From the IMG/VR virus record IMGVR_UViG_3300037420_000666: a stretch of 14,365 bases of DNA. One strand, written 5' to 3'. Positions 1,641 through 13,119 of the stretch are shown one piece after another. The position numbers and the translations under genes were made by a program. Source of the stretch: a virus (taxonomy: Duplodnaviria; Heunggongvirae; Uroviricota; Caudoviricetes). The notes under the pieces are model-generated. The model saw only the letters and a list, made by a program, of their open reading frames with translations. It did not search any database and was not told the DNA's origin. The number at the start of each line of letters is the position of its first letter. Within the stretch, counting starts at the first letter, position 1.

Positions 1641-2558
1641 TCAGGCGGCGTTCGCCGTTTGGCCTACGGCCGAGGCAGCGGCGCGGTCCAGGCGCTCCAA
1701 CTCAGCCAGGATCAAGGCGCCGGCCTTGACCAGCATCCGCCGCTCCGTGCCGGGCTTCCACCATTCGGGGGCCCACGGCCACAGCGTCGGCACATCGGCG
1801 CGCGGGTCGGCGTCCCCAACGCAATAGCACGCTGCTGCTGCGGCCATCTCGCCGCGCGAGTGCTCGTCGTCGTGCTCGGGCGTCCAGCCCTCGGCGCTGA
1901 CCTGGCGCGCACGCTCCGCGAGCACGTCCTGTGCGGCGGGTGTGATCGCCTGCAATGCCTCGCGGTGGGTCATCTCCCGGTCCACCGCGCGCGCAACGTC
2001 CTGCACCGATGCGCTCCAATATTCCGGCCGCATGTCGCGCGCCTTCGCTGCGCTCTCACGGGTGTTGGCCATGGCGACCACGCCGCAGGCCGCGTGACAC
2101 ATGCGCTCGCGCTCCAGCTCGGCGCGCAGCGCGCGGATCTCGTCTGCCGCCTGGATGCACGCCTCGGTGTCCAACTGGTCCCAGCAGTGGCCGCCGGCGT
2201 AGTTCGCGGCCATGGCGCGCAGGCGGGGCTCTTGGGATTCGGTGGTGACCGTAGGCGGCTGGGTCAGGGCGGCGCGGGCCTGCCATGCCTCCCAGGCATG
2301 AGCCAGCCCGCCGGCCGGCGAGTAGATGCCGTGCTTCTCGTCGCGGAAGGCGAACCCTGCGCGGATCGCCCAGCCCTCGAACGCTGCGCGCTCGTCCGGC
2401 TGCGCCCCGCTGGCGGCGGGCTGGGCCAGGGCCGCGCGCACAACTTCCATGCGTTCGCGCAGCAATGCGTAGTTGCCGCCGTGCGGCGTGCCGTCGATCG
2501 TTGCCAGCGCGTCGCTGGCGGCAGTGCGCAGGTCGGGCACGGTGGTGTTGGTGTTCAT
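1641..2558 (-). CDS. Ea22-like phage protein with C-terminal DUF550-type domain (recalled as dATP/dGTP pyrophosphohydrolase-like)
   Basis: Start set at internal ATG 2558 (MNTNTTVPDL...) with GGAG upstream; the longer frame begins at GTG and overlaps the upstream gene by about 210 nt. C-terminus WTPEHDDEHSRGEMAAAAACYC...WPWAPEWWKPGTERRMLVKAGALILAELERLDR matches my memory of the DUF550 signature found in lambda Ea22-like proteins. Sits where ea22 sits in lambda, between xis and the recombination genes. Confidence 0.65.
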   Translation of the reverse strand: MNTNTTVPDLRTAASDALATIDGTPHGGNYALLRERMEVVRAALAQPAASGAQPDERAAFEGWAIRAGFAFRDEKHGIYSPAGGLAHAWEAWQARAALTQPPTVTTESQEPRLRAMAANYAGGHCWDQLDTEACIQAADEIRALRAELERERMCHAACGVVAMANTRESAAKARDMRPEYWSASVQDVARAVDREMTHREALQAITPAAQDVLAERARQVSAEGWTPEHDDEHSRGEMAAAAACYCVGDADPRADVPTLWPWAPEWWKPGTERRMLVKAGALILAELERLDRAAASAVGQTANAA

Positions 2559-2572
2559 GGTGTTCTCCGGGG

Positions 2573-3820
2573 TTATGCGGCGAGGGCGGCAGCCCACATG
2601 TCGGGCTGCGTGGCGCCGTTCTGGTAGACGATCTCGGGCAGCACGGTGTCGGCGGTGGGCTCGTCGCCTTCCCAGCCGTCCGGCCACGTCTCGGCGGCGA
2701 TCAGCTCGCGGATGCGCGCCTCTTCCTTGGCGTTGATCAGGCTGATCTCGGGCCGGCGCAGGGCGCGCGCCGCGGCGTTGCACTCGGCCTGGATGCCCAG
2801 GACGCGCTCCAGCGCCATGGAGCGGGCCTCCAGCGTCAGCGGGCCCATGCGCTGCGGGTTCTTGGCGATCGCGCCCGACTTCAGGCGCTCGGCGCCGGCC
2901 TTCTTCAGGCGGTGCTGCGGTTCGCGCAGCTCACGCCACAGCCGCTTCAGCCCGCGCAGCGGCGCCAGGTACTGCCAGTGCGGCAGGGCCAGCACCGTCT
3001 CCAGCGCCTTCTCCTCCTGGGCCAGCGGGCAGCCGATGCAGCCTGTGCGCGCGTTGATCTCCTCGGCCTCGTCGCCGCCGTAGGCGTCCGCGATGGCGGC
3101 CGTGCTCCAGTCGCCGAACTCGGCCGCGGGCGCCCAGTGCTTCAGCCACTCCCACACGTGGCACACGCGCCAGTGCAGCAGCGGCGCGAGGGTTGCAATG
3201 CGGCCGCGCAGACCCTTCGCGTTCGGCAGCACCTGCTGGTACCAGCCTTGGCCGCACTCGGCGCCATCCTTGCTGCAGCTCATTTCGATGCGCCGGTCAC
3301 GGATGGCGCTCTCGCCCTGGCGCACGCCGGTGATCATCAGGAAGTTGCCTTGCAGCTGCAGCGCGTCCAGGCGCTGCTCCAGCGCGTGCTGCATCGGGTC
3401 GATCTTGATCTGCCGCGTGCACCACCTCAGCGTGTTGTTGTTCGGCGGCGGCACACCGCGACCCAGGATGTAGACCATAAAGCGCTTGTCCATGGGCGCA
3501 CGCACCACGTCCACCTGGATGCCGCGCTCGCGCAGCTCGTCCATGATCTGTTCGGCTGCGATGGCCAGCGGCGGCAGCTCCTGGCGCGTGTCGGCGTAGA
3601 AGATGGTCAGCGACTGCGGCGCCGCGATCTGCCCGGCGTCGATCAGCCAGCAGATCATGGTGAGCGTTGCGCTGCTGTCCTTGCCGCCTGACCAGGCAAT
3701 GCCCCAGTGCGGATGGTCCGGGCCGTAGGCCTGCAGCGACTGAATCGTGAGCTCGATGCTCTCGGTCATCTGCAGGCGCTGCGCGGTGGCGTCGAAGAAG
3801 CTGCTCTGTATGCGGCTCAT
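2573..3820 (-). CDS. PP-loop ATP-pyrophosphatase / PAPS-reductase-like protein (DndC- or phage DUF3440-like)
   Basis: Start set at ATG 3820 (MSRIQSSFFD...) with GAGGGAAGGA upstream; the longer frame starts at GTG 3889. Contains the canonical PP-loop SGGKDS (WGIAWSGGKDSSATL) and a cysteine-containing C-terminal half (TGCIGCPL). A 14-nt gap to the next gene suggests one operon. Confidence 0.8.
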   Translation of the reverse strand: MSRIQSSFFDATAQRLQMTESIELTIQSLQAYGPDHPHWGIAWSGGKDSSATLTMICWLIDAGQIAAPQSLTIFYADTRQELPPLAIAAEQIMDELRERGIQVDVVRAPMDKRFMVYILGRGVPPPNNNTLRWCTRQIKIDPMQHALEQRLDALQLQGNFLMITGVRQGESAIRDRRIEMSCSKDGAECGQGWYQQVLPNAKGLRGRIATLAPLLHWRVCHVWEWLKHWAPAAEFGDWSTAAIADAYGGDEAEEINARTGCIGCPLAQEEKALETVLALPHWQYLAPLRGLKRLWRELREPQHRLKKAGAERLKSGAIAKNPQRMGPLTLEARSMALERVLGIQAECNAAARALRRPEISLINAKEEARIRELIAAETWPDGWEGDEPTADTVLPEIVYQNGATQPDMWAAALAA

Positions 3821-6811: not shown

Positions 6812-7480
6812 TCAGGCGGCCAGCGGCATCGGGCGGCGCAGGGCGGCCTCGTGCTGGTCCACCACACGGCGGAAGTCCATCAGGTCGGACTCCAGGGCTT
6901 CGATTGCGTCGTCATCGCGGCGGATGCGCTGGATGAACAGGCTCTTGCCCACCGGTTCCAGCCAGGGGCAGAACACCACTAGGTCGCACCAGGCGCGGCC
7001 GGTGATCCAGAGTCCGCCCAGGATCTGGTCGCGGTACTCGTCGGCCGCGTGGGCCGGGTCCGTCCAGATCAGGCCCAGCTTGTCGCAAGCGGCCGGGCAC
7101 TTGATCTCGACCATGCCCACATCGCCCACGAAGCCGTCCGTGCTGTAGCCGAAGGCGCCGTCGTCGGTGAAGACGATGCCGGCCTCCATGGCCAGCGAGC
7201 CGGTGTGCTGCTCGTAGGCCTCGCGCGCTGCGGGCTCCAGCTCGGTGCCGCGCTTCATGGCCCACGTGACGAAGGTGTCATCCAGCGACGTGCCGCTGAT
7301 GCGCTCCATGGCCAGGGTCCATGCGTACTTGATGGCCTCGCTGCTGGGGTCGCCCGCCTTGCGGTCGCCGCTGGCGCGCTTCAGCTTCGAGCGGGCATCA
7401 CTGAAGCGGCTGGCGGTGATCACGCCGGCGCGCGCGGCCAGCCATTCCTGCGTGCCCTGTTGGACTTGAAGGAAGCGCAT
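6812..7480 (-). CDS. YqaJ-like viral recombinase-associated exonuclease (lambda Exo functional analogue)
   Basis: N-terminal QQGTQEWLAARAGVITASRFSDA is the hallmark YqaJ/PD-(D/E)XK exonuclease opening. ATG at 7480 lies 4 nt after the RecT stop, the classic RecT-exonuclease pair. Confidence 0.9.
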   Translation of the reverse strand: MRFLQVQQGTQEWLAARAGVITASRFSDARSKLKRASGDRKAGDPSSEAIKYAWTLAMERISGTSLDDTFVTWAMKRGTELEPAAREAYEQHTGSLAMEAGIVFTDDGAFGYSTDGFVGDVGMVEIKCPAACDKLGLIWTDPAHAADEYRDQILGGLWITGRAWCDLVVFCPWLEPVGKSLFIQRIRRDDDAIEALESDLMDFRRVVDQHEAALRRPMPLAA

Positions 7481-7483
7481 GGC

Positions 7484-8491
7484 TCAGGCCTCCAGCGCTT
7501 CGCCGCGCACCGCGATCAGCTTCTCCAGCCGCGTGCGCTCCTCGCCCTCGGGCAGCGTGGCCACGTCGTCGCCGATGAGCAACAACACCTGGGCGTCGCT
7601 GCAGCTGCCGATGCGCTGCTCCAACGCCACCACGTCCAGGCCCGGGGCAGCATCGGCGGCCGGCATGTCCACGGTGCGCGCAGCGTCGGCGTCGATCGCG
7701 GCTTGCTTCAGGCGCGGGTGGTGCTCGGCGAGGTGCTTGCGGTTGGCCGGGCCGGTGGACTTCCAGAATTCCTGGTACGCGGCCACGCCCTCGGCGGCGG
7801 CGTTCTCGGCGGCCTCCAGCAGGCCGGCGGGCATCTGCGGTGCTTCGGGCGCCTGCGGCTGCACGGTGTTGGCCGGGCCCATGTTCTTGGGTGGCGCGAT
7901 CTGCTCCAGCTCGTCGGGCGTGTAGATGCCCAGGATGGCGCCAGGCGTGTAGAGGCGGGCCCAGTTCTTGGCCTGCAGATATCCAAGCTGCTGTTTCGGG
8001 TTCGTCTTCCACAGCGGCGAATTCCTGGTCGTGACCGACTTCATGCACAGCCACTCGCCCCAGGTGATCTCCTGCTCGCCACGCAGCACCGCGCCCGCGC
8101 GGCACTCGACGGCTTCGCCGGTGCCCTTGAACTCGTACTTGAACGTGCCGTGGATCGCGCCGCTGGCCTGCACCACCGCGATGACCAGTTGCGCCTCGTA
8201 GCCCAGCGTGCCGTTGACCACGTGCGTCTTCTGGGCCACGGCGTAGGGGTTCATGCGCCACTGCGCGGCCTGCATCGCCACCGCCAGGCAGTCGCCCGTC
8301 TTGCCCTGCAGGTGCTTGGGCACGGTGATGGTGGCCTTGGCCATCTCCTGGGCCACCACGGCCAGGGCGTTCATGGTGGTGGCGTCCATCAGCAGGTCCA
8401 GCGCGCCAACGCGCGTCGGGCCTGCGGCCATGGCGGGCTGCTGCTCGATGGGGGCGGCCAGGGCCAGCGGTTGTTCGGTCATCGTGTTCAT
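7484..8491 (-). CDS. recT: RecT-family single-strand annealing protein
   Basis: 335-aa ORF. Motifs VPKHLQGKTGDCLAVAMQAAQWRMNPY...THVVNGTLGYEAQL...ECRAGAVLRGEQEITWGEWLCMKS fit the RecT/Red-beta family. ATG at 8491 preceded by GAGGA. Immediately upstream of the YqaJ exonuclease. Confidence 0.9.
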   Translation of the reverse strand: MNTMTEQPLALAAPIEQQPAMAAGPTRVGALDLLMDATTMNALAVVAQEMAKATITVPKHLQGKTGDCLAVAMQAAQWRMNPYAVAQKTHVVNGTLGYEAQLVIAVVQASGAIHGTFKYEFKGTGEAVECRAGAVLRGEQEITWGEWLCMKSVTTRNSPLWKTNPKQQLGYLQAKNWARLYTPGAILGIYTPDELEQIAPPKNMGPANTVQPQAPEAPQMPAGLLEAAENAAAEGVAAYQEFWKSTGPANRKHLAEHHPRLKQAAIDADAARTVDMPAADAAPGLDVVALEQRIGSCSDAQVLLLIGDDVATLPEGEERTRLEKLIAVRGEALEA

Positions 8492-8503
8492 GTGGTCCTC
8501 GGG

Positions 8504-8656
8504 TCAGTGAGAGAGGGCGCGCACCGCAGCGCGCAATGCGGTGAAGGGGCGGGCCCCGATGGCGCGCCAGGCGGTCCAGCAGGCGGCCACGCGGCGGCCG
8601 GCGCCGGGGATCTGGATGTGCGCCGTGGCGGCGCGGGAGGCGGTTGCTGCGTCCAC
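8504..8656 (-). CDS. Possible small ORF (about 50 aa), uncertain
   Basis: Fills the 167-bp gap between the zinc-finger gene stop (8659-8661) and the RecT start. Would start at GTG 8656, 2 nt after that stop. Product is low complexity (A/R-rich) and may be an artefact of GC-rich sequence. Confidence 0.2.
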   Translation of the reverse strand: MDAATASRAATAHIQIPGAGRRVAACWTAWRAIGARPFTALRAAVRALSH

Positions 8657-8658
8657 GG

Positions 8659-9135
8659 TCAGGCTCCCTTGCAGAAGTCGATGAGGGCGCGCACGCCGCG
8701 GCGGCGCTGGGTGGTGCCTCGCACGATCCAAAGGCCGGTGCCGGGCCAGAAGTCCACAAGCTGCTTCTGTCCGGCTCGCACAACCAGGTGCGCGCCGTCG
8801 TTCTTGCTTGTGAACTGGATGCCTTGCTCGGCCAGCATCTGCGCGCCCTCGGCGCGGTTGTTGGCGCGGCGCTGCTGGTCGGCCTGGATGTCGCCTTTCA
8901 CGGCGCGCCAGAAGTCGCCTACCGTTTCGCCGTCGTCATCGTCGCGCGGGCTCTTGGGAGGCTTGATGCCGTGCGCGTCCTTGCGGTGCTGGCTCAACTG
9001 CTCCGGCTGCGCAAAGCGGCGCGTGCACTTGTCGCAAGCGTGCGGCTTCTCTTGCTTGGCCGGCTGCTGGGTGGCGGCCTTGACCTTGCGGCGGTGCGCG
9101 TCGCGCTCGCGCCAGATGTCTCCGATGTCTCCCAT
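8659..9135 (-). CDS. Phage protein with a classical C2H2-type zinc finger
   Basis: Start set at ATG 9135 (MGDIGDIWRERDAH...) with GGAG upstream; the longer frame begins at TTG 9180. Contains CDKC-x12-H-x4-H (HACDKCTRRFAQPEQLSQHRKDAHG), which is C-x2-C-x12-H-x4-H spacing. The C-terminal half (GAHLVVRAGQKQLVDFWPGTGLWIVRG) was not recognised. Confidence 0.7.
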   Translation of the reverse strand: MGDIGDIWRERDAHRRKVKAATQQPAKQEKPHACDKCTRRFAQPEQLSQHRKDAHGIKPPKSPRDDDDGETVGDFWRAVKGDIQADQQRRANNRAEGAQMLAEQGIQFTSKNDGAHLVVRAGQKQLVDFWPGTGLWIVRGTTQRRRGVRALIDFCKGA

Positions 9136-9136
9136 G

Positions 9137-9229
9137 TCAGGCTCCAACGAGGACGCGGAACGCGTAGCCCGCGAGCGCAATCAGCGCCGTGCCGGCCATC
9201 ACGATCAGCTCGGGTGCGATGCGGTTCAT
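9137..9229 (-). CDS. Putative 30-aa hydrophobic micro-protein
   Basis: MNRIAPELIVMAGTALIALAGYAFRVLVGA, a single predicted transmembrane helix. Its ATG shares ATGA with the upstream stop (9226-9229) and its stop lies 1 nt before the next start (9135). The longer 87-aa frame has an implausible N-terminus overlapping neighbours. Confidence 0.4.
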   Translation of the reverse strand: MNRIAPELIVMAGTALIALAGYAFRVLVGA

Positions 9230-9363
9230 GCGGCACCCCGGCGCAGCTTCTTCAGCTGCTCGATGTCGGCACGGATCAGGGCGCGCGTGGCGGCCTTCAC
9301 TTCGGCGCAGTTCCGGCGCGGCAGAAGGATCTGCAGCGCGCGCTCGATGACTGCGGCGCTCAT
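9226..9363 (-). CDS. Hypothetical 45-aa protein
   Basis: Internal ATG 9363 (MSAAVIERALQILLPRRNCAEVKAATRALIRADIEQLKKLRRGAA) with GAGG upstream. Start lies adjacent to the upstream gene's stop codon (9360-9362) and its stop overlaps the next start. Likely helical. Confidence 0.45.
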   Translation of the reverse strand: MSAAVIERALQILLPRRNCAEVKAATRALIRADIEQLKKLRRGAA

Positions 9364-9866
9364 GCCGCGAGCCTCGACTGGTAGGCGTCGATCGCCGCAT
9401 CCGTCTTGGCCGCCTCGCACTCCAGGCGGTAGTCGCGCTCGCACGCGGCTTGCCACAGCTCGGCCGTCCTCGTGTCGATCAGGTCGGCGTCCAGGCCGTT
9501 CACGCGCTCCAGGATCACCAGCGGGCTCACGCGGCCGCTGGGGTCCTCGTCGGTCTCAATGCGGTACTGCAGCAGCACCGGGCGAATGCCGGCCTGCATG
9601 GTGCAGGTGTAGACGCCGCGCTCTTTGGAGGCGCCCAGGTACTGCTCCAGGTTGCTGATCTCGCGACACAGCGCGTGCACGTGGCCACGCAGGTTGCTCG
9701 CCTCGATGCGCGAGGCGCACAGCTCGCGGCGCAGCAGGCGCTCGGCGTCGGTGCGGCTCGTGAGGTCGTCGCCGTTCTCGGCGGCGCGGGCCTCGCCGAG
9801 CTGGGCGCACGTCGCGGCGATGCGCTCGGCGCGGTCCTGGGGGCGGGTGGTGGCGATGGCGGCCAT
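9360..9866 (-). CDS. Hypothetical phage early protein
   Basis: 168 aa from ATG 9866 (the track's first M at 9869 is GTG). Start overlaps the upstream stop (TGATG). No family recognised. Confidence 0.65.
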   Translation of the reverse strand: MAAIATTRPQDRAERIAATCAQLGEARAAENGDDLTSRTDAERLLRRELCASRIEASNLRGHVHALCREISNLEQYLGASKERGVYTCTMQAGIRPVLLQYRIETDEDPSGRVSPLVILERVNGLDADLIDTRTAELWQAACERDYRLECEAAKTDAAIDAYQSRLAA

Positions 9867-10513
9867 CACTTGCCCTCCGCTGCGGCGCCGTCATCCATCG
9901 GGTCGAAGACGCTGCCGTACATCGCGCGGTGCATCTCGTTCGCGGCAGCAAACGGACTCCCTCCCGTTTCGCGCTGCTCCATGGCGATTGCCATGATGTC
10001 CATGCCCTTGATCTGCTCGCGCAGCGCTTGCACCTCTGCATTCAGCCGTTGGATCTCCGCGTCGCGCGGGTCCGCCTGCGCCACCGTGCCGCCGCCTTGC
10101 ACCTCCGCTGCAGCGATGGCCTTGTCCAGATCGTCGCGGGCGCCGTTCCGGCTGCTCAGCAGGGAGAAGTAGTTCGGAGCGTTGGGGCCCTGCAGCTCGC
10201 GGTTGTCCAGCGCGTCCTGTGCGTCCAGGAAGTCGGTCAGCGCCGCCACCACGTTCAGCAGCTCGTCGCGCTGCTCGCGCAACTTCTGCGCCTCGGCAGC
10301 CAGTGCCGGCGCAGACGCCACCAATTGCGCTCTCGCTTCATCCGCCGCGTCGTCTGCGCCGTCGCTGTGGCACATGAAGCAGACGGTGGTGTCGGCGTCG
10401 CGCATGACGTGGCGGCTCCACTGCATGTATGGGCGCGGGTCGCGCTCAATGAACCAGCGTTCTTGCTGGACTGCCTGCGCCGTCCCGGCGCTGGTGTTGG
10501 TTTGGTCGGCCAT
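9866..10513 (-). CDS. Hypothetical phage early protein
   Basis: 215 aa, ATG at 10513, 4 nt after the upstream stop. Has a CxxC-like pair (VCFMCHSDG) and an acidic, coiled-coil-like C-terminal half. No family recognised. Confidence 0.65.
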   Translation of the reverse strand: MADQTNTSAGTAQAVQQERWFIERDPRPYMQWSRHVMRDADTTVCFMCHSDGADDAADEARAQLVASAPALAAEAQKLREQRDELLNVVAALTDFLDAQDALDNRELQGPNAPNYFSLLSSRNGARDDLDKAIAAAEVQGGGTVAQADPRDAEIQRLNAEVQALREQIKGMDIMAIAMEQRETGGSPFAAANEMHRAMYGSVFDPMDDGAAAEGK

Positions 10514-10516
10514 GGC

Positions 10517-10780
10517 TCAGGCCCCCAGGCGAGCGATCAGCATGGCGTCGGCCATGGCGTAGGCGCGGCGGGCATCGTCAAGACGGCCCGCCGTCGTGCT
10601 GCTCTCGCCGCGCTGCTCCATGACCATCGGCAGCGCCGCGACCGCGAAGTAGTCGCGCAGCGTCATGCCGGCCTGCGCGTGGCTGTAAATCTGCGTCTCG
10701 TGCAGCGTGGCCGGGCGCGCGAACGCCGGCCCGCCGTCGTTGATCTGCTGCGCCGCCCCGGCGCGGGTGGTGTCTGCCAT
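10517..10780 (-). CDS. Hypothetical protein, first gene of the leftward early operon
   Basis: 87 aa, ATG at 10780 preceded by GGAGGA, about 30 bp downstream of the PL-like promoter and operators. Occupies the position lambda N holds, but no N-like arginine-rich motif was seen. Confidence 0.6.
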   Translation of the reverse strand: MADTTRAGAAQQINDGGPAFARPATLHETQIYSHAQAGMTLRDYFAVAALPMVMEQRGESSTTAGRLDDARRAYAMADAMLIARLGA

Positions 10781-10806
10781 GTGTCCTCCGTGGGGTTGAT
10801 GGAGGA

Positions 10807-10835
10807 ATGTTAGGCATAGCCTTACTTGCCGTCAA
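10807..10835 (-). promoter_or_regulatory. PL-like early-left promoter (candidate -35 TTGACG, 17-bp spacer, -10 TAACAT on the minus strand)
   Basis: Minus strand reads TTGACG (top 10830-10835), a 17-bp spacer, TAACAT (top 10807-10812), then GGAGGA and the ATG at 10780. Operator repeats lie in the spacer and just upstream of the -35. Confidence 0.45.
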
Positions 10836-10848
10836 TAGGCTGCGCCTA
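10808..10848. promoter_or_regulatory. OL-like operator pair for the CI-like repressor
   Basis: TGTTAGGCATAGCCTTA (10808-10824; inverted arms AGGC/GCCT around a 3-bp spacer) and the perfect 13-bp palindrome TAGGCTGCGCCTA (10836-10848), centres about 25 bp apart. The 17-mer recurs exactly at 12793-12809. Confidence 0.55.
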
Positions 10849-11006
10849 CTTTTTGTTTGGCGGCGCCTTATCTGCTCGATGTGAAAGGCCCGTCGGGTAG
10901 CGGGCGCAGGAGTGCTGTAGCGCGCCGCCGCACTGCGACGCGCGGCCTACTGCTTCACCGTCCACGCGCTGGCCCGCATTGCTGCGCAGCGCATTCCCCA
11001 GACGTG

Positions 11007-11028
11007 AAAAAGCCCGCACGAGGCGGGC
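11007..11028 (-). terminator. Intrinsic (rho-independent) terminator of the repressor/cargo transcript
   Basis: On the minus strand a GC stem GCCCGC(11023-11028)/GCGGGC(11012-11017) with a 5-nt loop is followed directly by UUUUU (top AAAAA 11007-11011). Lies about 30 nt downstream of the J-domain gene stop (11060) and upstream of the PL region. Confidence 0.55.
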
Positions 11029-11059
11029 GCTTGGCTTGGCAGTGCGGCGGCGGCAGTGC

Positions 11060-11590
11060 TTAGTTTCGTCCGATCCAGCGGATACCAAGCCAGGCCAAGC
11101 CCGAAAGCAATGGAAGCGACAAGTTCAGGGCCAGGAACCCGTTCTCGGTAAGGTTGTAGTCCCATCTCCAGATGACACCCCAGAGCTGCACAGCAACTAC
11201 CCACAGAATGCTGGCAACAATCCAGGCGCGTGTCCGTCGCCTGCACTGCTCGCGGATCGCCTTCAAGCGCACTTCTGGCTTGGCAGCCTCAAGCACCGAC
11301 AGCAGCTTGGCGTGCCCGCCTCCATCTGCATATCGAAGGTAAGCGTCGTACTTCTTGCGCCGCTCCGGGTCTCCGAGGGTGTGCAAGGCCTGCTGAGTGA
11401 GCGCATACCGGGCGGGCGCGTCCTTGCTGCCACAGCCCGTTTTTGGGTGGTAAGTGGCGCTGAAAAAGCTGTGCGCCATTTCTATGTAGTCTTGCGTGGC
11501 ATTCGGCTGTAAATCAAGAACTCGATAGAAATCAACGATTCCATCTGCCCTTTTGAACTCGTCTAATACACGCTGCGCATCCTCGTCCAT
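11060..11590 (-). CDS. Membrane-anchored J-domain (DnaJ-like) protein with HPK in place of HPD
   Basis: 176 aa. Residues about 20-85 align along the whole J-domain pattern (DFYRVLDLQPNATQDYIEMAHSFFSATYHPKTG...ALHTLGDPERRKKYDAYL versus DnaJ DYYEILGV...YHPDRN...AYEVLTDSQKRAAYDQYG). The tripeptide is HPK (codons CAC CCA AAA, top 11441-11449). Two C-terminal hydrophobic segments (AWIVASILWVVAVQLWGVIW, FLALNLSLPLLSGLAWLGIRWI). Lower GC than the flanks; in the repressor-cargo region. Confidence 0.75.
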   Translation of the reverse strand: MDEDAQRVLDEFKRADGIVDFYRVLDLQPNATQDYIEMAHSFFSATYHPKTGCGSKDAPARYALTQQALHTLGDPERRKKYDAYLRYADGGGHAKLLSVLEAAKPEVRLKAIREQCRRRTRAWIVASILWVVAVQLWGVIWRWDYNLTENGFLALNLSLPLLSGLAWLGIRWIGRN

Positions 11591-11645
11591 ACCGCTCCCT
11601 TGTGATTATATTTAGCGAATTAACCTGAAATCAGTTTCGAATTTC

Positions 11646-11657
11646 TCGAATATTCGA
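11646..11657. promoter_or_regulatory. Perfect 12-bp palindrome TCGAATATTCGA with adjacent TTCGAA, upstream of the J-domain gene
   Basis: Located in the AT-rich 78-bp spacer between the 77-aa ORF and the J-domain gene. A perfect TATAAT (minus strand, top 11605-11610) lies 14 nt upstream of that gene's ATG. Candidate regulator-binding site and internal promoter. Confidence 0.35.
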
Positions 11658-11668
11658 TTGCGAGTGAG

Positions 11669-11902
11669 TCAGCGTATTCGCTGAGCCAATTCATCATCAA
11701 GCGCAGCTAACATCCCGCGAGCAAATGTTGGATTCCGATGGGCTTCGCCGCTGGTATTTACAACGAACCCTCGTTGTTTTGTCATTGCGGCGTATGCGAC
11801 CCCTATCACTTCGCCTCGTTCCGCTCGCTCCAGAAGGTTTCTTAAGTCGGCCACCACGTCGTGTGGGGCCTCCTCCCGAACGAGGCGAAACGGAGGCTTC
11901 AT
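11669..11902 (-). CDS. Hypothetical 77-aa protein coupled to the repressor gene
   Basis: ATG overlaps the repressor stop (ATGA at 11899-11902) and is preceded by AAGGAAA. Sequence MKPPFRLVREEAPHDVVADLRNLLERAERGEVIGVAYAAMTKQRGFVVNTSGEAHRNPTFARGMLAALDDELAQRIR; no family recognised. Lower GC than the flanks. Confidence 0.55.
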   Translation of the reverse strand: MKPPFRLVREEAPHDVVADLRNLLERAERGEVIGVAYAAMTKQRGFVVNTSGEAHRNPTFARGMLAALDDELAQRIR

Positions 11903-12744
11903 GACTTCTTTTCCTTGCCGCTTTCATCGGTACGGATGATCCGCTCCATGCCCGGCATGGGGCGGTCGCTGAAGTACTTACCGCCGGGCGGCTGTTCCTT
12001 CTGAACCGGAACAGCGCGCGCGGTGCGCCCGATCCTTTCCAAGAATCGAGGCAATTCCTCCCGTGGTTTTATTTTTCGTGCCGGCACAGGGTGCGGCACG
12101 TAATAGACCCAAGTTACTTCGGTGGGGCTGAAACTTAAAACTTCCGGCGAGTTATAACTTCCAAATCTCCACCCGCCGCGCCGGCTCAGCAGTCGCTTGA
12201 GCATAGTCGAACCATCGGCCAAGCGCACAAGAACGTCATCCTCAAGATCGGGGTCGCTGCTTGGCTCGACTAGCGCATATTCGTTTGGCATGTATTTGGG
12301 GATCATCGAATCTCCGACGACCCGGCAGACAAACGCGTAATCGTCGCTGCTGAGCACCTCGGCAAATTCGGTGGCCTCCGAAAGCCAGTTGTCATCGAAT
12401 ATCCGCTCCGGCATTCCTCCCTGGCAGGTGCCGCACACGTAGACCGGGCGGACGCTGCGCGCCGGGAGTGTCTGAGGCGGAGCACTCTCTGTCGCAACCA
12501 TGACTGACAGGCCAGCACTGACCGTGCCCGGGTAGGCCGTCAGGCCCCAATGCTCCGGCCCAACCACATTTGCAAACAGAGCCCAGAGCCCCGGCAGCTT
12601 CTCCTTCGAGATGGTTCCGCGGTTCACCCAGTCCTGGATCGTCGGCGGCTTGACCCCGAAATGCTCCGCCAGGGCTTTCTTGGTGATGCCCTTTTTTAGT
12701 CTGGCCGCCTCGATGGCTTGCCCTAGTTCGATCCCGGTAAGCAT
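11899..12744 (-). CDS. CI/LexA-like prophage repressor (N-terminal XRE-type HTH, C-terminal S24 peptidase domain)
   Basis: 281 aa. N-terminal HTH (LGQAIEAARLKKGITKKALAEHFGVKPPTIQDWVNRG) and an S24 autoproteolysis domain with Ser and Lys motifs (VVGDSMIPKYMPNEYALV ... DGSTMLKRL). Carries an unusual ~60-aa C-terminal tail. Divergent from a Cro-like gene; AGGA lies 10 nt upstream of the ATG. Confidence 0.9.
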   Translation of the reverse strand: MLTGIELGQAIEAARLKKGITKKALAEHFGVKPPTIQDWVNRGTISKEKLPGLWALFANVVGPEHWGLTAYPGTVSAGLSVMVATESAPPQTLPARSVRPVYVCGTCQGGMPERIFDDNWLSEATEFAEVLSSDDYAFVCRVVGDSMIPKYMPNEYALVEPSSDPDLEDDVLVRLADGSTMLKRLLSRRGGWRFGSYNSPEVLSFSPTEVTWVYYVPHPVPARKIKPREELPRFLERIGRTARAVPVQKEQPPGGKYFSDRPMPGMERIIRTDESGKEKKS

Positions 12745-12760: not shown

Positions 12761-12813
12761 TAAGGCAGTGAGTAGGCAATTCCTTGCAGAATTGTTAGGC
12801 ATAGCCTTATCAT
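12761..12813. promoter_or_regulatory. OR-like operator/promoter region between the repressor and Cro-like genes
   Basis: Contains TGTTAGGCATAGCCTTA (12793-12809, identical to 10808-10824), an imperfect copy TAGGCAATTCCT (12773-12784) and half-site TAAGGC (12761-12766). Candidate rightward promoter: -35 TTGCAG (12784-12789), -10 TATCAT (12808-13), which places the transcript start at or next to the cro ATG (12820). Confidence 0.5.
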
Positions 12814-12819
12814 GGCGCC

Positions 12820-13119
12820 ATGAACGATCCCATCAACGACCTCGGCGGTCCGACTGCGGTGGCAAAGATGCTGTGCATCAAGGCCCCGTCCGTCGTCCAG
12901 TGGAAAGGCCGCATTCCGGCTGAACGGCGCGTGGACCTGGAGCGCGTCGCCTACCCCAAGTTCTGGGTTGAGCGCGCCGGCGACGACGTGCGCTGGCAGC
13001 GCGTGCCCGATCCCGAGTGGCCGCATCCCGATGGCCGCCCTTGTATCGACGTTGCCGCGATGCGCCCCCCGCTCCCCCAAGCCGCCGCCGCAGCTCCCCA
13101 GGCTGTGGCTGCGAGCTGA
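12820..13119 (+). CDS. Cro/YdaS-like HTH regulator
   Basis: 99 aa. DLGGPTAVAKMLCIKAPSVVQWKGRIPAERRVDLERV matches the YdaS/Cro-type HTH pattern (...QW..rG.iPaeR...iE..). Divergent from the repressor across the operator region. No Shine-Dalgarno upstream, so possibly leaderless. Confidence 0.75.
   Translation: MNDPINDLGGPTAVAKMLCIKAPSVVQWKGRIPAERRVDLERVAYPKFWVERAGDDVRWQRVPDPEWPHPDGRPCIDVAAMRPPLPQAAAAAPQAVAAS

Follow-up and report, generated by a model that had tools for sequence, protein, structure and literature searches.

A conserved candidate gene for a hydrophobic micropeptide within a compact early operon of a lambda-like temperate phage

On the minus strand of the window (the whole 14,365-nt stretch of viral DNA analyzed) lie the genes nearest the promoter of an early-left (pL-type) operon under repressor control, which belongs to a lambda-like temperate phage or prophage of a high-GC proteobacterium. 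Six ORFs of 87, 215, 168, 45, 30, and 158 amino acids succeed one another on this strand through five junctions of +3, −1, −4, −4, and +1 nt. We favor an explanation, to which we assign a probability of roughly 0.55, in which this is an ordinary early operon, its micro-ORFs are real, and the 30-aa hydrophobic peptide pep30 is a membrane partner coupled to its neighbors. The function considered alone, that of a partner or anchor embedded in the membrane and produced at a constant ratio to soluble neighbors, is proposed tentatively and at less than even odds. An initial annotation of this DNA described five ORFs joined by overlapping or adjacent stop and start codons; the sequence reads as described, except that the chain comprises six ORFs. 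The genes of the chain and one candidate continuation are listed below.

10780-10517, minus strand: orf87, which opens the operon and has a strong SD sequence (GGAGGA) and a match to phrog_2201 (E 2.5e-15)
10513-9866, minus strand: orf215, coiled-coil-like, starting 3 nt past the orf87 stop
9866-9360, minus strand: orf168, whose start overlaps the orf215 stop
9363-9226, minus strand: orf45, a small basic protein with ATGA overlaps with orf168 (at its start) and pep30 (at its end)
9229-9137, minus strand: pep30, 30 aa, MNRIAPELIVMAGTALIALAGYAFRVLVGA, a hydrophobic single helix, with its stop 1 nt before the orf158 ATG
9135-8659, minus strand: orf158, a putative N-terminal C2H2-type zinc finger (residues ~31-55) plus a DFWPGTGLW domain (phrog_27571)
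8504..8656, minus strand: candidate orf50, with a GTG start 2 nt past the orf158 stop and a GC3 of 0.88 versus 0.67-0.68 in the other frames

The junctions read TGAgccATG (+3 nt) between orf87 and orf215, which share a reading frame; TGATG (−1) between orf215 and orf168; ATGA (−4) between orf168 and orf45 and again between orf45 and pep30; and TGAcATG (+1) between pep30 and orf158, which lie in different frames. All six ORFs terminate with TGA. An SD-like motif is positioned 3–7 nt upstream of every start codon (anti-SD duplex of −5.6 to −10 kcal/mol); that of pep30, GGGGUG, is predicted to pair within a hairpin (z −2.1), an indirect hint that pep30 translation may depend on that of the gene upstream. 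The GC content at each codon position is gene-like in every ORF of the chain (GC3 0.84–0.95, GC2 0.46–0.56), and the GC3 frame plot changes phase at the junctions. Spacings of −4 and −1 are the most frequent among co-directional genes across prokaryotes, and coupled pairs are recognized by distance as co-directional genes with a −4 or −1 overlap or a gap well below ~20 nt (PMC10666635). All five junctions fall within this range. Termination-reinitiation coupling has been shown by experiment in other genes with the same junction geometry (PMC6728339, PMC10666635). The ATGA and TGATG pairs described by Huber et al. in 2019 (PMC6728339) and 2023 (PMC10666635) share with the chain their junction types (−4, −1, and gaps of ≤3 nt) as well as SD-like motifs within the upstream gene, whereas coupling here is read from sequence and the feature is generic and operon-wide. 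The initial annotation took the junctions to indicate translational coupling. Their geometry matches that of experimentally coupled genes, from which we infer that a ribosome ending one cistron would restart on the next, aided by the SD-like motifs inside the upstream gene.

From orf87 down to a PAPS-reductase-like gene, successive junctions measure +3, −1, −4, −4, +1, +2, +12, +3, +28, −1, +34, +1, and +106 nt, 9 of the 13 being ≤3 nt. The entire operon is thus about as closely packed as the flagged chain, which is not distinctive. Junction tightness beyond chance is a sign of real ORFs and not a peculiarity of this stretch. As an arrangement, the start/stop chain is standard operon compaction and teaches nothing new. 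The candidate orf50 would fill an apparent 167-nt gap and extend the chain to RecT. It is called by IMG in L002 and L004 and uncalled for L001; it has no family match and no significant similarity to a 63-aa ORF at the equivalent position in lineage L008.

The initial annotation placed the chain in a phage early operon, and the surrounding features bear this out.

12744-11899, minus strand: cI-like S24/HTH repressor
12820-13119: P22_Cro-like gene, diverging from the cI-like repressor gene
10807..10835, minus strand: pL-like sigma-70 promoter, TTGACG-17-TAACAT, located 27 nt before the start codon of orf87
10800..10824: operator-like repeat with the near-palindrome TTAGGCATAGCCTTA, which overlaps the promoter at its −10 box and spacer (repeat families D2 and D5)
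8491-7484, minus strand: RecT, downstream in the same operon (recombination module 6812..8491)
7480-6812, minus strand: YqaJ-like exonuclease, downstream in the same operon

The pL-like promoter is the sole promoter-like site in positions 8300–12000, where shuffled sequences gave 0.3. A second operator-like copy (12785–12809) separates the cI-like gene from the Cro-like one, and a weaker copy is found at 10853–10872; repeat family D2 spans 25 nt at 88% identity. A terminator follows the upstream DnaJ-TM gene, and a tyrosine integrase is also encoded downstream on the same strand as the chain. The region thus shows main features of a lambdoid pL operon: a repressor with operator copies at two early promoters, one of them directly upstream of the operon, followed on the operon strand by genes for recombination and integration. 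An N-type antiterminator and nut sites, also typical of such operons, are not among the features identified. In lambda, the space between pL and the recombination genes is occupied by accessory genes such as ral, kil, cIII, and ea10. The chain genes follow the same positional logic, being small, fast-evolving, mosaic, directly controlled by the repressor, and located upstream of recombination genes and integrase, but they have no sequence similarity to any of these accessory genes. Neither Kil nor CIII of lambda is known to be a transmembrane micropeptide. An 869-aa plus-strand ORF that runs across the region (7049-9658; GC3 0.70, GC2 0.60) was rejected as a high-GC artefact.

The 30-aa ORF has a GC3 of 0.84, and its 23-aa Kyte-Doolittle maximum of 1.94 compares with 1.78 and 2.20 in two other lineages. 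The next highest gene hydropathy in the window is 1.37, and values of at least 1.9 occur in 0.06% of six-frame windows. With no more than 50 residues and one membrane-length hydrophobic stretch, pep30 has the features of a small single-pass membrane protein. An 87-aa ORF (9400-9137) that contains pep30 was set aside, with a GC3 of 0.64 and an extension that runs into both orf45 and orf168. In lineage L008 the copy is 27 aa long (MSAELIAVAGTTALALAGYLVRIVAGA); ATGA joins it to an unrelated 125-aa gene upstream, and a stand-alone zinc finger comes next. In lineage L122, a 29-aa hydrophobic ORF shares an ATGA overlap with an orf45 homolog and precedes an unrelated gene. A hydrophobic ORF of 27–30 aa is therefore found in the same coupled position in three lineages, with the upstream or downstream neighbor exchanged, and the single-helix peptide pointed out in the initial annotation proves both credible and conserved. 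The L122 copy is 40% identical and was missed by an HMM built from the other two copies; it may be an analog rather than a homolog.

Differences between the window and L008 peptides are distributed 9/4/9 over the three codon positions, and neutral simulation preserved both identity and hydrophobicity in 0.6% of runs (p ~0.006). Because 11 of 25 codons are substituted non-synonymously between these two peptides, in every case within the set of hydrophobic and small residues, selection would appear to act on hydrophobic character rather than on a specific sequence. Such selection would also fit a non-specific membrane-active peptide. Within a block that is 94.5% identical in lineage L004, the numbers of synonymous and non-synonymous codon changes are 1 and 0 in pep30, 5 and 4 in orf45, and 8 and 17 in orf158.

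Searches with pep30 yielded no match in Pfam, PHROGs, NCBIfam, or PADLOC and none in cultured phages by tblastn, and blastn with the chain found nothing among 50,697 phage records. A protein search of a 5.8-billion-cluster set, with the query padded to 40 aa, returned only pep30 itself. Reciprocal HMM comparisons of pep30 with small TM ORFs upstream of DFWPGTG genes in L062, L079, and L084 were empty, and by sequence these would be analogs at best. Two other roles were considered and rejected. The peptide is not a candidate holin, as it does not lie within a lysis cassette, and a readthrough or frameshift fusion with orf158 lacks a conserved recoding design, the spacing being 1 nt in one lineage versus 3 nt in others.

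A gene-like composition is likewise seen in orf45 (GC3 0.85), for which a 44-aa homolog with 70% identity (P0045) is present on another phage contig; the L004 homology block begins exactly at the orf45 ATG. Its AF2 model, a helix-turn-helix hairpin with a pLDDT of 78, suggests a small basic two-helix protein. No match to orf45 was found in PADLOC, NCBIfam, Pfam, or PHROGs, the protein search returned only itself, and viral-contig scans with orf45 patterns recovered only the source contig. Matches to Bacillus phage polymerases in tblastn against cultured phages (E at least 1) were attributed to chance, and orf45 has no similarity to the 125-aa gene upstream of the L008 peptide. Both orf45 and pep30 appear to be genuine genes. 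Upstream of them, L004 and L122 carry another gene in place of orf168, which has no match in PADLOC, NCBIfam, Pfam, or PHROGs. Profile searches gave no family assignment for orf215, whose matches to LmuB, SbcC, and SMC were dismissed as coiled-coil noise.

On the other side of pep30, orf158 carries a DFWPGTGLW domain that is widespread in proteobacterial prophages. Its N-terminal motif, C34-x2-C37...H50-x4-H55, fits the C-x2-C...H-x3-5-H spacing of C2H2 fingers and is invariant in three aligned sequences; the score against Pfam PF00096 is 19.1 bits, below the cut-off of 25.2. The AF2 model (pLDDT 86) contains a beta-beta-alpha finger with a pLDDT of ~88; Foldseek matches to C2H2 fingers were weak (E 0.5 or worse), and the C-terminal domain of the model had no significant Foldseek match. 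Scanning metagenomes with the zinc-finger alignment produced two weak matches, which were discarded as unrelated. Among 100 unique DFWPGTG loci, a small hydrophobic ORF ends at the start of the gene in 8 of 96, compared with 2.0% of other same-strand ORFs and 1.2% of antisense ORFs (Fisher p 0.0014 and 1e-4), p-values that are optimistic, since spurious ORFs are part of the baseline and the enrichment comes from ~5–6 independent peptide families. Over 90% of DFWPGTG genes have no pep30 upstream, and the L122 peptide is followed by neither a zinc-finger nor a DFWPGTG gene before the contig ends.

Several other explanations of pep30 were weighed against that of a coupled partner. The peptide could be a membrane-active toxin or host-takeover factor, made early after induction and acting, independently of its neighbors, on the inner membrane or on a membrane protein of the host, with effects on such processes as division, transport, or superinfection exclusion. 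A single hydrophobic helix of 27–30 aa with small-residue motifs, encoded in an early operon and apparently selected for hydrophobic character more than sequence, would suit this role, as would the persistence of the peptide when either neighbor is exchanged. In related early regions, moreover, unrelated small TM ORFs with tight junctions at both ends are recurrent, 16 of them along the operon strand versus 2 antisense. We nevertheless regard such a factor as unlikely. Similarity to defence, toxin, or phage families and matches to cultured phages are absent, and the sequence does not tell a toxin from a benign membrane subunit. Pairs joined by −4 or −1 overlaps or very short gaps are enriched for subunits of complexes (PMC10666635, PMC6728339), and tight ATGA coupling is more typical of co-functioning products (PMC10666635). 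The toxin-like or takeover role that the initial annotation suggested thus drew no support from PADLOC, Pfam, PHROGs, or NCBIfam, nor from a promoter, antisense signal, or Rfam family belonging to the peptide itself. Its most specific form, the toxin of a type I toxin-antitoxin pair within the prophage, is barely credible. In size and in its single hydrophobic helix, pep30 does resemble TisB, Ibs, Ldr, Hok, and Fst, and type I toxin loci are described in prophages in PMC12648545. A type I toxin mRNA, however, has its own promoter and leader, whereas pep30 has neither a promoter of its own nor a structured leader and is tied into a long operon by start/stop overlaps, between ATGA and 1-nt junctions, with no promoter-like site in positions 8300–10800. 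The opposite strand has no promoter-like site and shows neither a coding nor an RNA signal; its single weak terminator-like site is no more than chance would give. Scans of a kind that could miss a novel sRNA matched no Rfam family. Nothing supports a type I locus, and we disfavor it.

It is improbable, in our estimation, that pep30 is functionless as a peptide, whether as a relay or spacer ORF kept open by ribosome passage from orf45 to orf158 and by the rarity of stop codons in 70% GC DNA, or as a leftover of mosaic recombination. The ORF would often survive without selection, as 76% of neutrally mutated pep30 copies remained open in simulation, and the mosaic breakpoint relative to L008 lies within the opening codons of the peptide ORF; low identity between lineages and the orphan status of pep30 in the protein database point the same way. 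Nonetheless, a hydrophobicity that is nearly absent elsewhere is kept in all three lineages, although a relay needs no hydrophobic product. Moreover, codon position 2 is the least changed, GC3 is gene-like, and pep30 is the least diverged segment in the comparison with L004. Quite improbable, too, is a stable gene fission in which pep30 is the split-off membrane anchor of a TM-plus-zinc-finger protein, formerly single or still so elsewhere, whose halves reassemble after coupled translation. In both L008 and L122 the TGA of the peptide and the ATG that follows 3 nt later share a frame, the ORF directly upstream of the DFWPGTG gene in L027 fuses a TM helix to a Cys-rich segment at the equivalent position, and the zinc finger itself is fused to the DFWPGTG domain in the window and free in L008. 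Against this, the window ORFs lie in different frames across their 1-nt gap, and in every lineage each of the ORFs is preceded by an SD and begins with a start codon of its own. No homology between the L027 ORF and pep30 was detected, and no fused pep30-zinc-finger protein was found in protein or metagenome searches.

If pep30 is instead a coupled membrane partner, as we prefer, it would be made in fixed proportion with orf45 (upstream) and the zinc-finger/DFWPGTG protein (downstream) and would most likely insert into the inner membrane. There it would recruit its soluble neighbors soon after induction, shortly ahead of recombination-gene expression. The hydrophobic ORFs enriched before DFWPGTG genes, the 16-to-2 strand bias of doubly coupled small TM ORFs, and the TM/Cys-rich fusion in L027 hint at such a partnership. 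Bacterial small membrane proteins such as KdpF, CydX, AcrZ, and MgtS act as subunits or regulators of larger proteins. With its ~30 residues, one hydrophobic helix, and an operon shared with presumed partners, pep30 is similar to these proteins; it differs from them in that it has no homology to them, its presumed partners are soluble-looking phage proteins, and its membrane insertion is predicted. Bacterial proteins of this class are treated in a review (PMC12648545). The peptide is carried by three lineages only, which counts against the preferred explanation. A broader proposal, which we consider distinctly unlikely, unites a tiny membrane helix, a zinc-binding module, and the DFWPGTGLW domain as the three parts, fused to varying degrees, of a recurrent early module that temperate phages of proteobacteria would carry just upstream of the recombination genes. 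In such a module the micropeptide would tether the other parts to the inner membrane, non-homologous peptides would substitute for one another between lineages, and coupled translation would set the stoichiometry. The unrelated small hydrophobic ORFs that precede DFWPGTG genes hint that this common prophage protein works at the membrane, which offers a handle for its study.

If expressed, pep30 and orf45 would enlarge the poorly charted set of phage-encoded microproteins. The initial annotation expected automated annotation to miss both. In this lineage they are called by the IMG and Logan callers; the expectation holds for other copies, as the 29-aa ORF of L122 is uncalled and the 27-aa and 29-aa copies are absent from the protein collection. 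Gene callers thus catch phage microproteins part of the time, the peptide being called in one lineage and missed in two.

The window is a lambdoid immunity and early region. A repressor gene with domain matches to HTH and S24 peptidase (12744-11899, minus strand) lies opposite a P22_Cro-like gene (12820-13119, plus strand), and a 25-nt repeat that includes the near-palindrome TTAGGCATAGCCTTA is located between them at 12785-12809. A second copy of this repeat at 10800-10824 overlaps the spacer and -10 box of a sigma-70-like promoter (10835-10807, minus strand), the sole one found in 8300-12000, which lies 27 nt upstream of orf87, the first of the following six ORFs, named by their length in amino acids.

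10780-10517, minus strand: orf87; next junction TGAgccATG
10513-9866, minus strand: orf215; next junction TGATG
9866-9360, minus strand: orf168; next junction ATGA
9363-9226, minus strand: orf45; next junction ATGA
9229-9137, minus strand: pep30, a hydrophobic single-helix peptide; next junction TGAcATG
9135-8659, minus strand: orf158; last ORF of the flagged chain

Downstream on the same strand are genes for RecT, a YqaJ exonuclease, four ORFs that have no family match, a PAPS-reductase-like protein, and a tyrosine integrase. Together, these features place the six ORFs as the first genes of the early-left operon; an early-operon setting had been proposed from the sequence alone. The PAPS-reductase-domain protein (415 aa; 2573-3820, minus strand; Pfam E 6.5e-9) is encoded in this operon, with the recombination genes on one side and the integrase on the other.

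The initial annotation had described a chain of tight start/stop junctions and a hydrophobic peptide within it. The window sequence contains exactly this peptide and five such junctions among the six ORFs. When the same gene model is extended downstream, junction distances are +3, -1, -4, -4, +1, +2, +12, +3, +28, -1, +34, +1, and +106 nt; 9 of the 13 do not exceed 3 nt, and TGA is the stop codon of every gene in the extended chain. Such a chain is not unusual and represents ordinary operon compaction. Co-directional prokaryotic genes lie at distances of -4 and -1 far more often than at any other, and termination-reinitiation coupling has been demonstrated experimentally at junctions of this type, declining steeply by ~20 nt (PMC6728339, PMC10666635). 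The earlier proposal of translational coupling along the chain is therefore reasonable, and such coupling is plausible.

The DNA of the window is ~70% GC and contains long spurious ORFs in all frames; real genes were told apart from artefacts by codon-position GC. All six chain ORFs have a GC3 of 0.84-0.95 and a GC2 of ~0.5, the phase of a sliding GC3 frame plot switches at the junctions, and an SD-like motif precedes each start at normal spacing. An 87-aa frame that extends pep30 upstream is not gene-like (GC3 only 0.64). Codon-position GC of 0.79/0.60/0.70 likewise marks as a high-GC artefact an 869-codon plus-strand open frame (7049-9658) antisense to RecT, orf158, pep30, orf45, and orf168.

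Four lines of sequence evidence indicate that both micro-ORFs, orf45 and pep30, are real genes. Their exact sequences are present in a public protein collection as IMG hypothetical proteins, and both are called on several JGI and Logan contigs. The expectation that automated annotation would miss them thus fails for the IMG and Logan calls and holds for a 29-aa counterpart on contig L122. On L004, a close variant, a 94.5%-identical block starts exactly at the ATG of orf45, and the upstream gene differs. In this block, synonymous and non-synonymous codon changes number 5 and 4 in orf45, 8 and 17 in orf158, and 1 and 0 in pep30. A search of 1.84 billion representative proteins found one diverged homologue of orf45 (P0045; 44 aa, 70% identity), which is encoded on L122, a different phage contig whose operon likewise begins beside a cI-like repressor. 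Directly after P0045, with an ATGA overlap, lies the uncalled 29-aa ORF MNPLFRLGDLVVAAVLVLALASAALQIGV, whose stop is 3 nt before an unrelated next gene. On IMG/VR contig L008, a 27-aa homologue of pep30 (pep27; MSAELIAVAGTTALALAGYLVRIVAGA) overlaps an unrelated 125-aa gene through ATGA and is followed, 3 nt after its stop, by a 66-aa stand-alone zinc finger of the orf158 type (zf66), then by a nuclease and a RecT-like gene. A short hydrophobic ORF thus holds the same coupled position in three lineages with its upstream or downstream neighbour swapped.

Between the window and L008 peptides, 22 of 75 aligned nucleotides differ (9/4/9 by codon position), and all 11 amino-acid changes exchange hydrophobic or small residues for one another. 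Identity and hydrophobicity were jointly kept in 0.6% of neutral simulations. The three peptides score 1.94, 1.78, and 2.20 for hydropathy over 23 residues; the window's other genes peak at 1.37, and a value of 1.9 is reached by only 0.06% of stop-free windows drawn from all six frames. The hydrophobic micropeptide appears genuine. An HMM of the other two peptides does not detect the L122 copy, which is only 40% identical and possibly analogous, not homologous, to them.

The orf158 protein is a putative, classical-looking C2H2-type finger fused to a DFWPGTGLW domain (phrog_27571) that is frequent in beta- and gammaproteobacterial prophages. C2H2 fingers are uncommon in phage proteins. The finger scores 19.1 bits, under the Pfam cut-off; its C-x2-C...H-x4-H motif is invariant and its AF2 fold is beta-beta-alpha. 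A long helix and a 5-stranded sheet make up the AF2 fold of the DFWPGTGLW domain (pLDDT above 90), for which no significant PDB match was found. The motif MGD[IM]GD[IFY]W occurs N-terminally, before the finger, and, in most relatives, at the start of the DFWPGTGLW domain, which suggests an insertion or duplication.

What might pep30 do? Searches of Pfam, PHROGs, NCBIfam, and PADLOC gave no match to pep30, orf45, or orf168; no relatives were found among 50,697 cultured-phage records, and a search of 5.8 billion protein clusters with pep30 returned no other protein. It is an orphan and would extend a class already known, the small membrane proteins of phages and bacteria. Upstream of DFWPGTG-family relatives, no pep30 homologues were found; non-homologous small hydrophobic ORFs occupy these sites instead. 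One ends at the DFWPGTG gene's start codon in 8 of 96 cases, compared with rates of 2.0% among the remaining same-strand ORFs and 1.2% among antisense ones, and small TM ORFs with tight coupling to both neighbours were counted 16 times on the operon strand versus twice on the antisense strand; these counts are only suggestive, because they comprise ~5-6 independent peptide families against a noisy baseline. On L027 (~2370-2610, plus strand), a 77-aa ORF immediately precedes a DFWPGTG-family gene, with an 8-nt overlap at the start of that gene. This ORF links a strong TM helix with a segment rich in Cys and His (MFIWTISDAISIVALALVALVFLAVYGKTVLSQVRCKHDGSVHETSACDAICAQCGK...) and could correspond, in fused form, to the TM peptide and zinc finger that are separate in the window. 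Overlapping gene pairs are enriched for complex subunits (PMC10666635). On these grounds, the most economical reading is that pep30 would act as a coupled membrane partner or anchor.

Two rivals must be weighed against a partner or anchor. One, in line with the initial annotation, is that pep30 may act as a free-standing membrane-active toxin or host modulator. A type I toxin locus is unlikely: pep30 is without its own promoter, the search for an antisense promoter found none, the only plus-strand terminator-like site is weak and within chance expectation, and no Rfam family matched. The pep30 gene lies outside any lysis cassette. The other rival is a function-less relay ORF, against which the retained hydrophobicity counts. 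The gap to the next gene is 1 nt and out of frame in the window, and 3 nt and in frame on both L008 and L122; this difference excludes a conserved fusion of the two genes by readthrough or frameshifting. Overall, the architecture is ordinary and the initial interpretation is partly supported.

Several minor observations concern the junctions. A GTG-initiated candidate of 50 codons (orf50; 8504-8656, minus strand) begins 2 nt past the orf158 stop, has a GC3 of 0.88 in that frame only, and is called by IMG in contigs L002 and L004; gene callers disagree. The 167 nt that appear empty between orf158 and RecT probably hold this additional small gene, which, if real, extends the tight chain to RecT. 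One string, TGAGCCATG with GGAGG or GGGGG before it, forms the junctions orf87/orf215 (10513-10519, minus strand) and RecT/YqaJ (7480-7486, minus strand), and likewise pep27/zf66 in L008 (2995-3003). Each time the two genes share a reading frame, such that TGA readthrough would fuse the pair; the recurrence is probably just a favoured SD-stop-start design. The junction CGGGGTGCNGCATGAACC (17 specified bases; 9226-9243, minus strand) was found in 16 further IMG/VR contigs (L125-L140) representing ~10 further unrelated gene pairs (~11 counting the window's own). In every case it falls at a true gene boundary where both reading frames are open, the upstream protein ending in RGAA and the downstream one starting with MN. 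Its recurrence could mean that selection has converged on an SD-plus-ATGA design, or that the sequence is a portable boundary for mosaic exchange. In an unrelated viral contig (L133; 6270-6511, minus strand), directly downstream of an HTH regulator, a 49-aa soluble ORF overlaps a 31-aa hydrophobic ORF (MNPVVLVTVILIAYVVVGLLAAAAVVLLVRG) through ATGA; the layout resembles orf45/pep30, with sequence similarity limited to the junction.

The interval from the repressor gene to the early-left promoter contains a gene for a 176-aa protein (11590-11060, minus strand) with an N-terminal DnaJ (J) domain and C-terminal hydrophobic helices, which had no match in a PADLOC search. This is the position of rexAB in lambda. 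The gene has a GC content of 0.52-0.61 versus ~0.70, is followed by a terminator-like hairpin (11028-11012, minus strand), and looks like a lysogeny-expressed moron.
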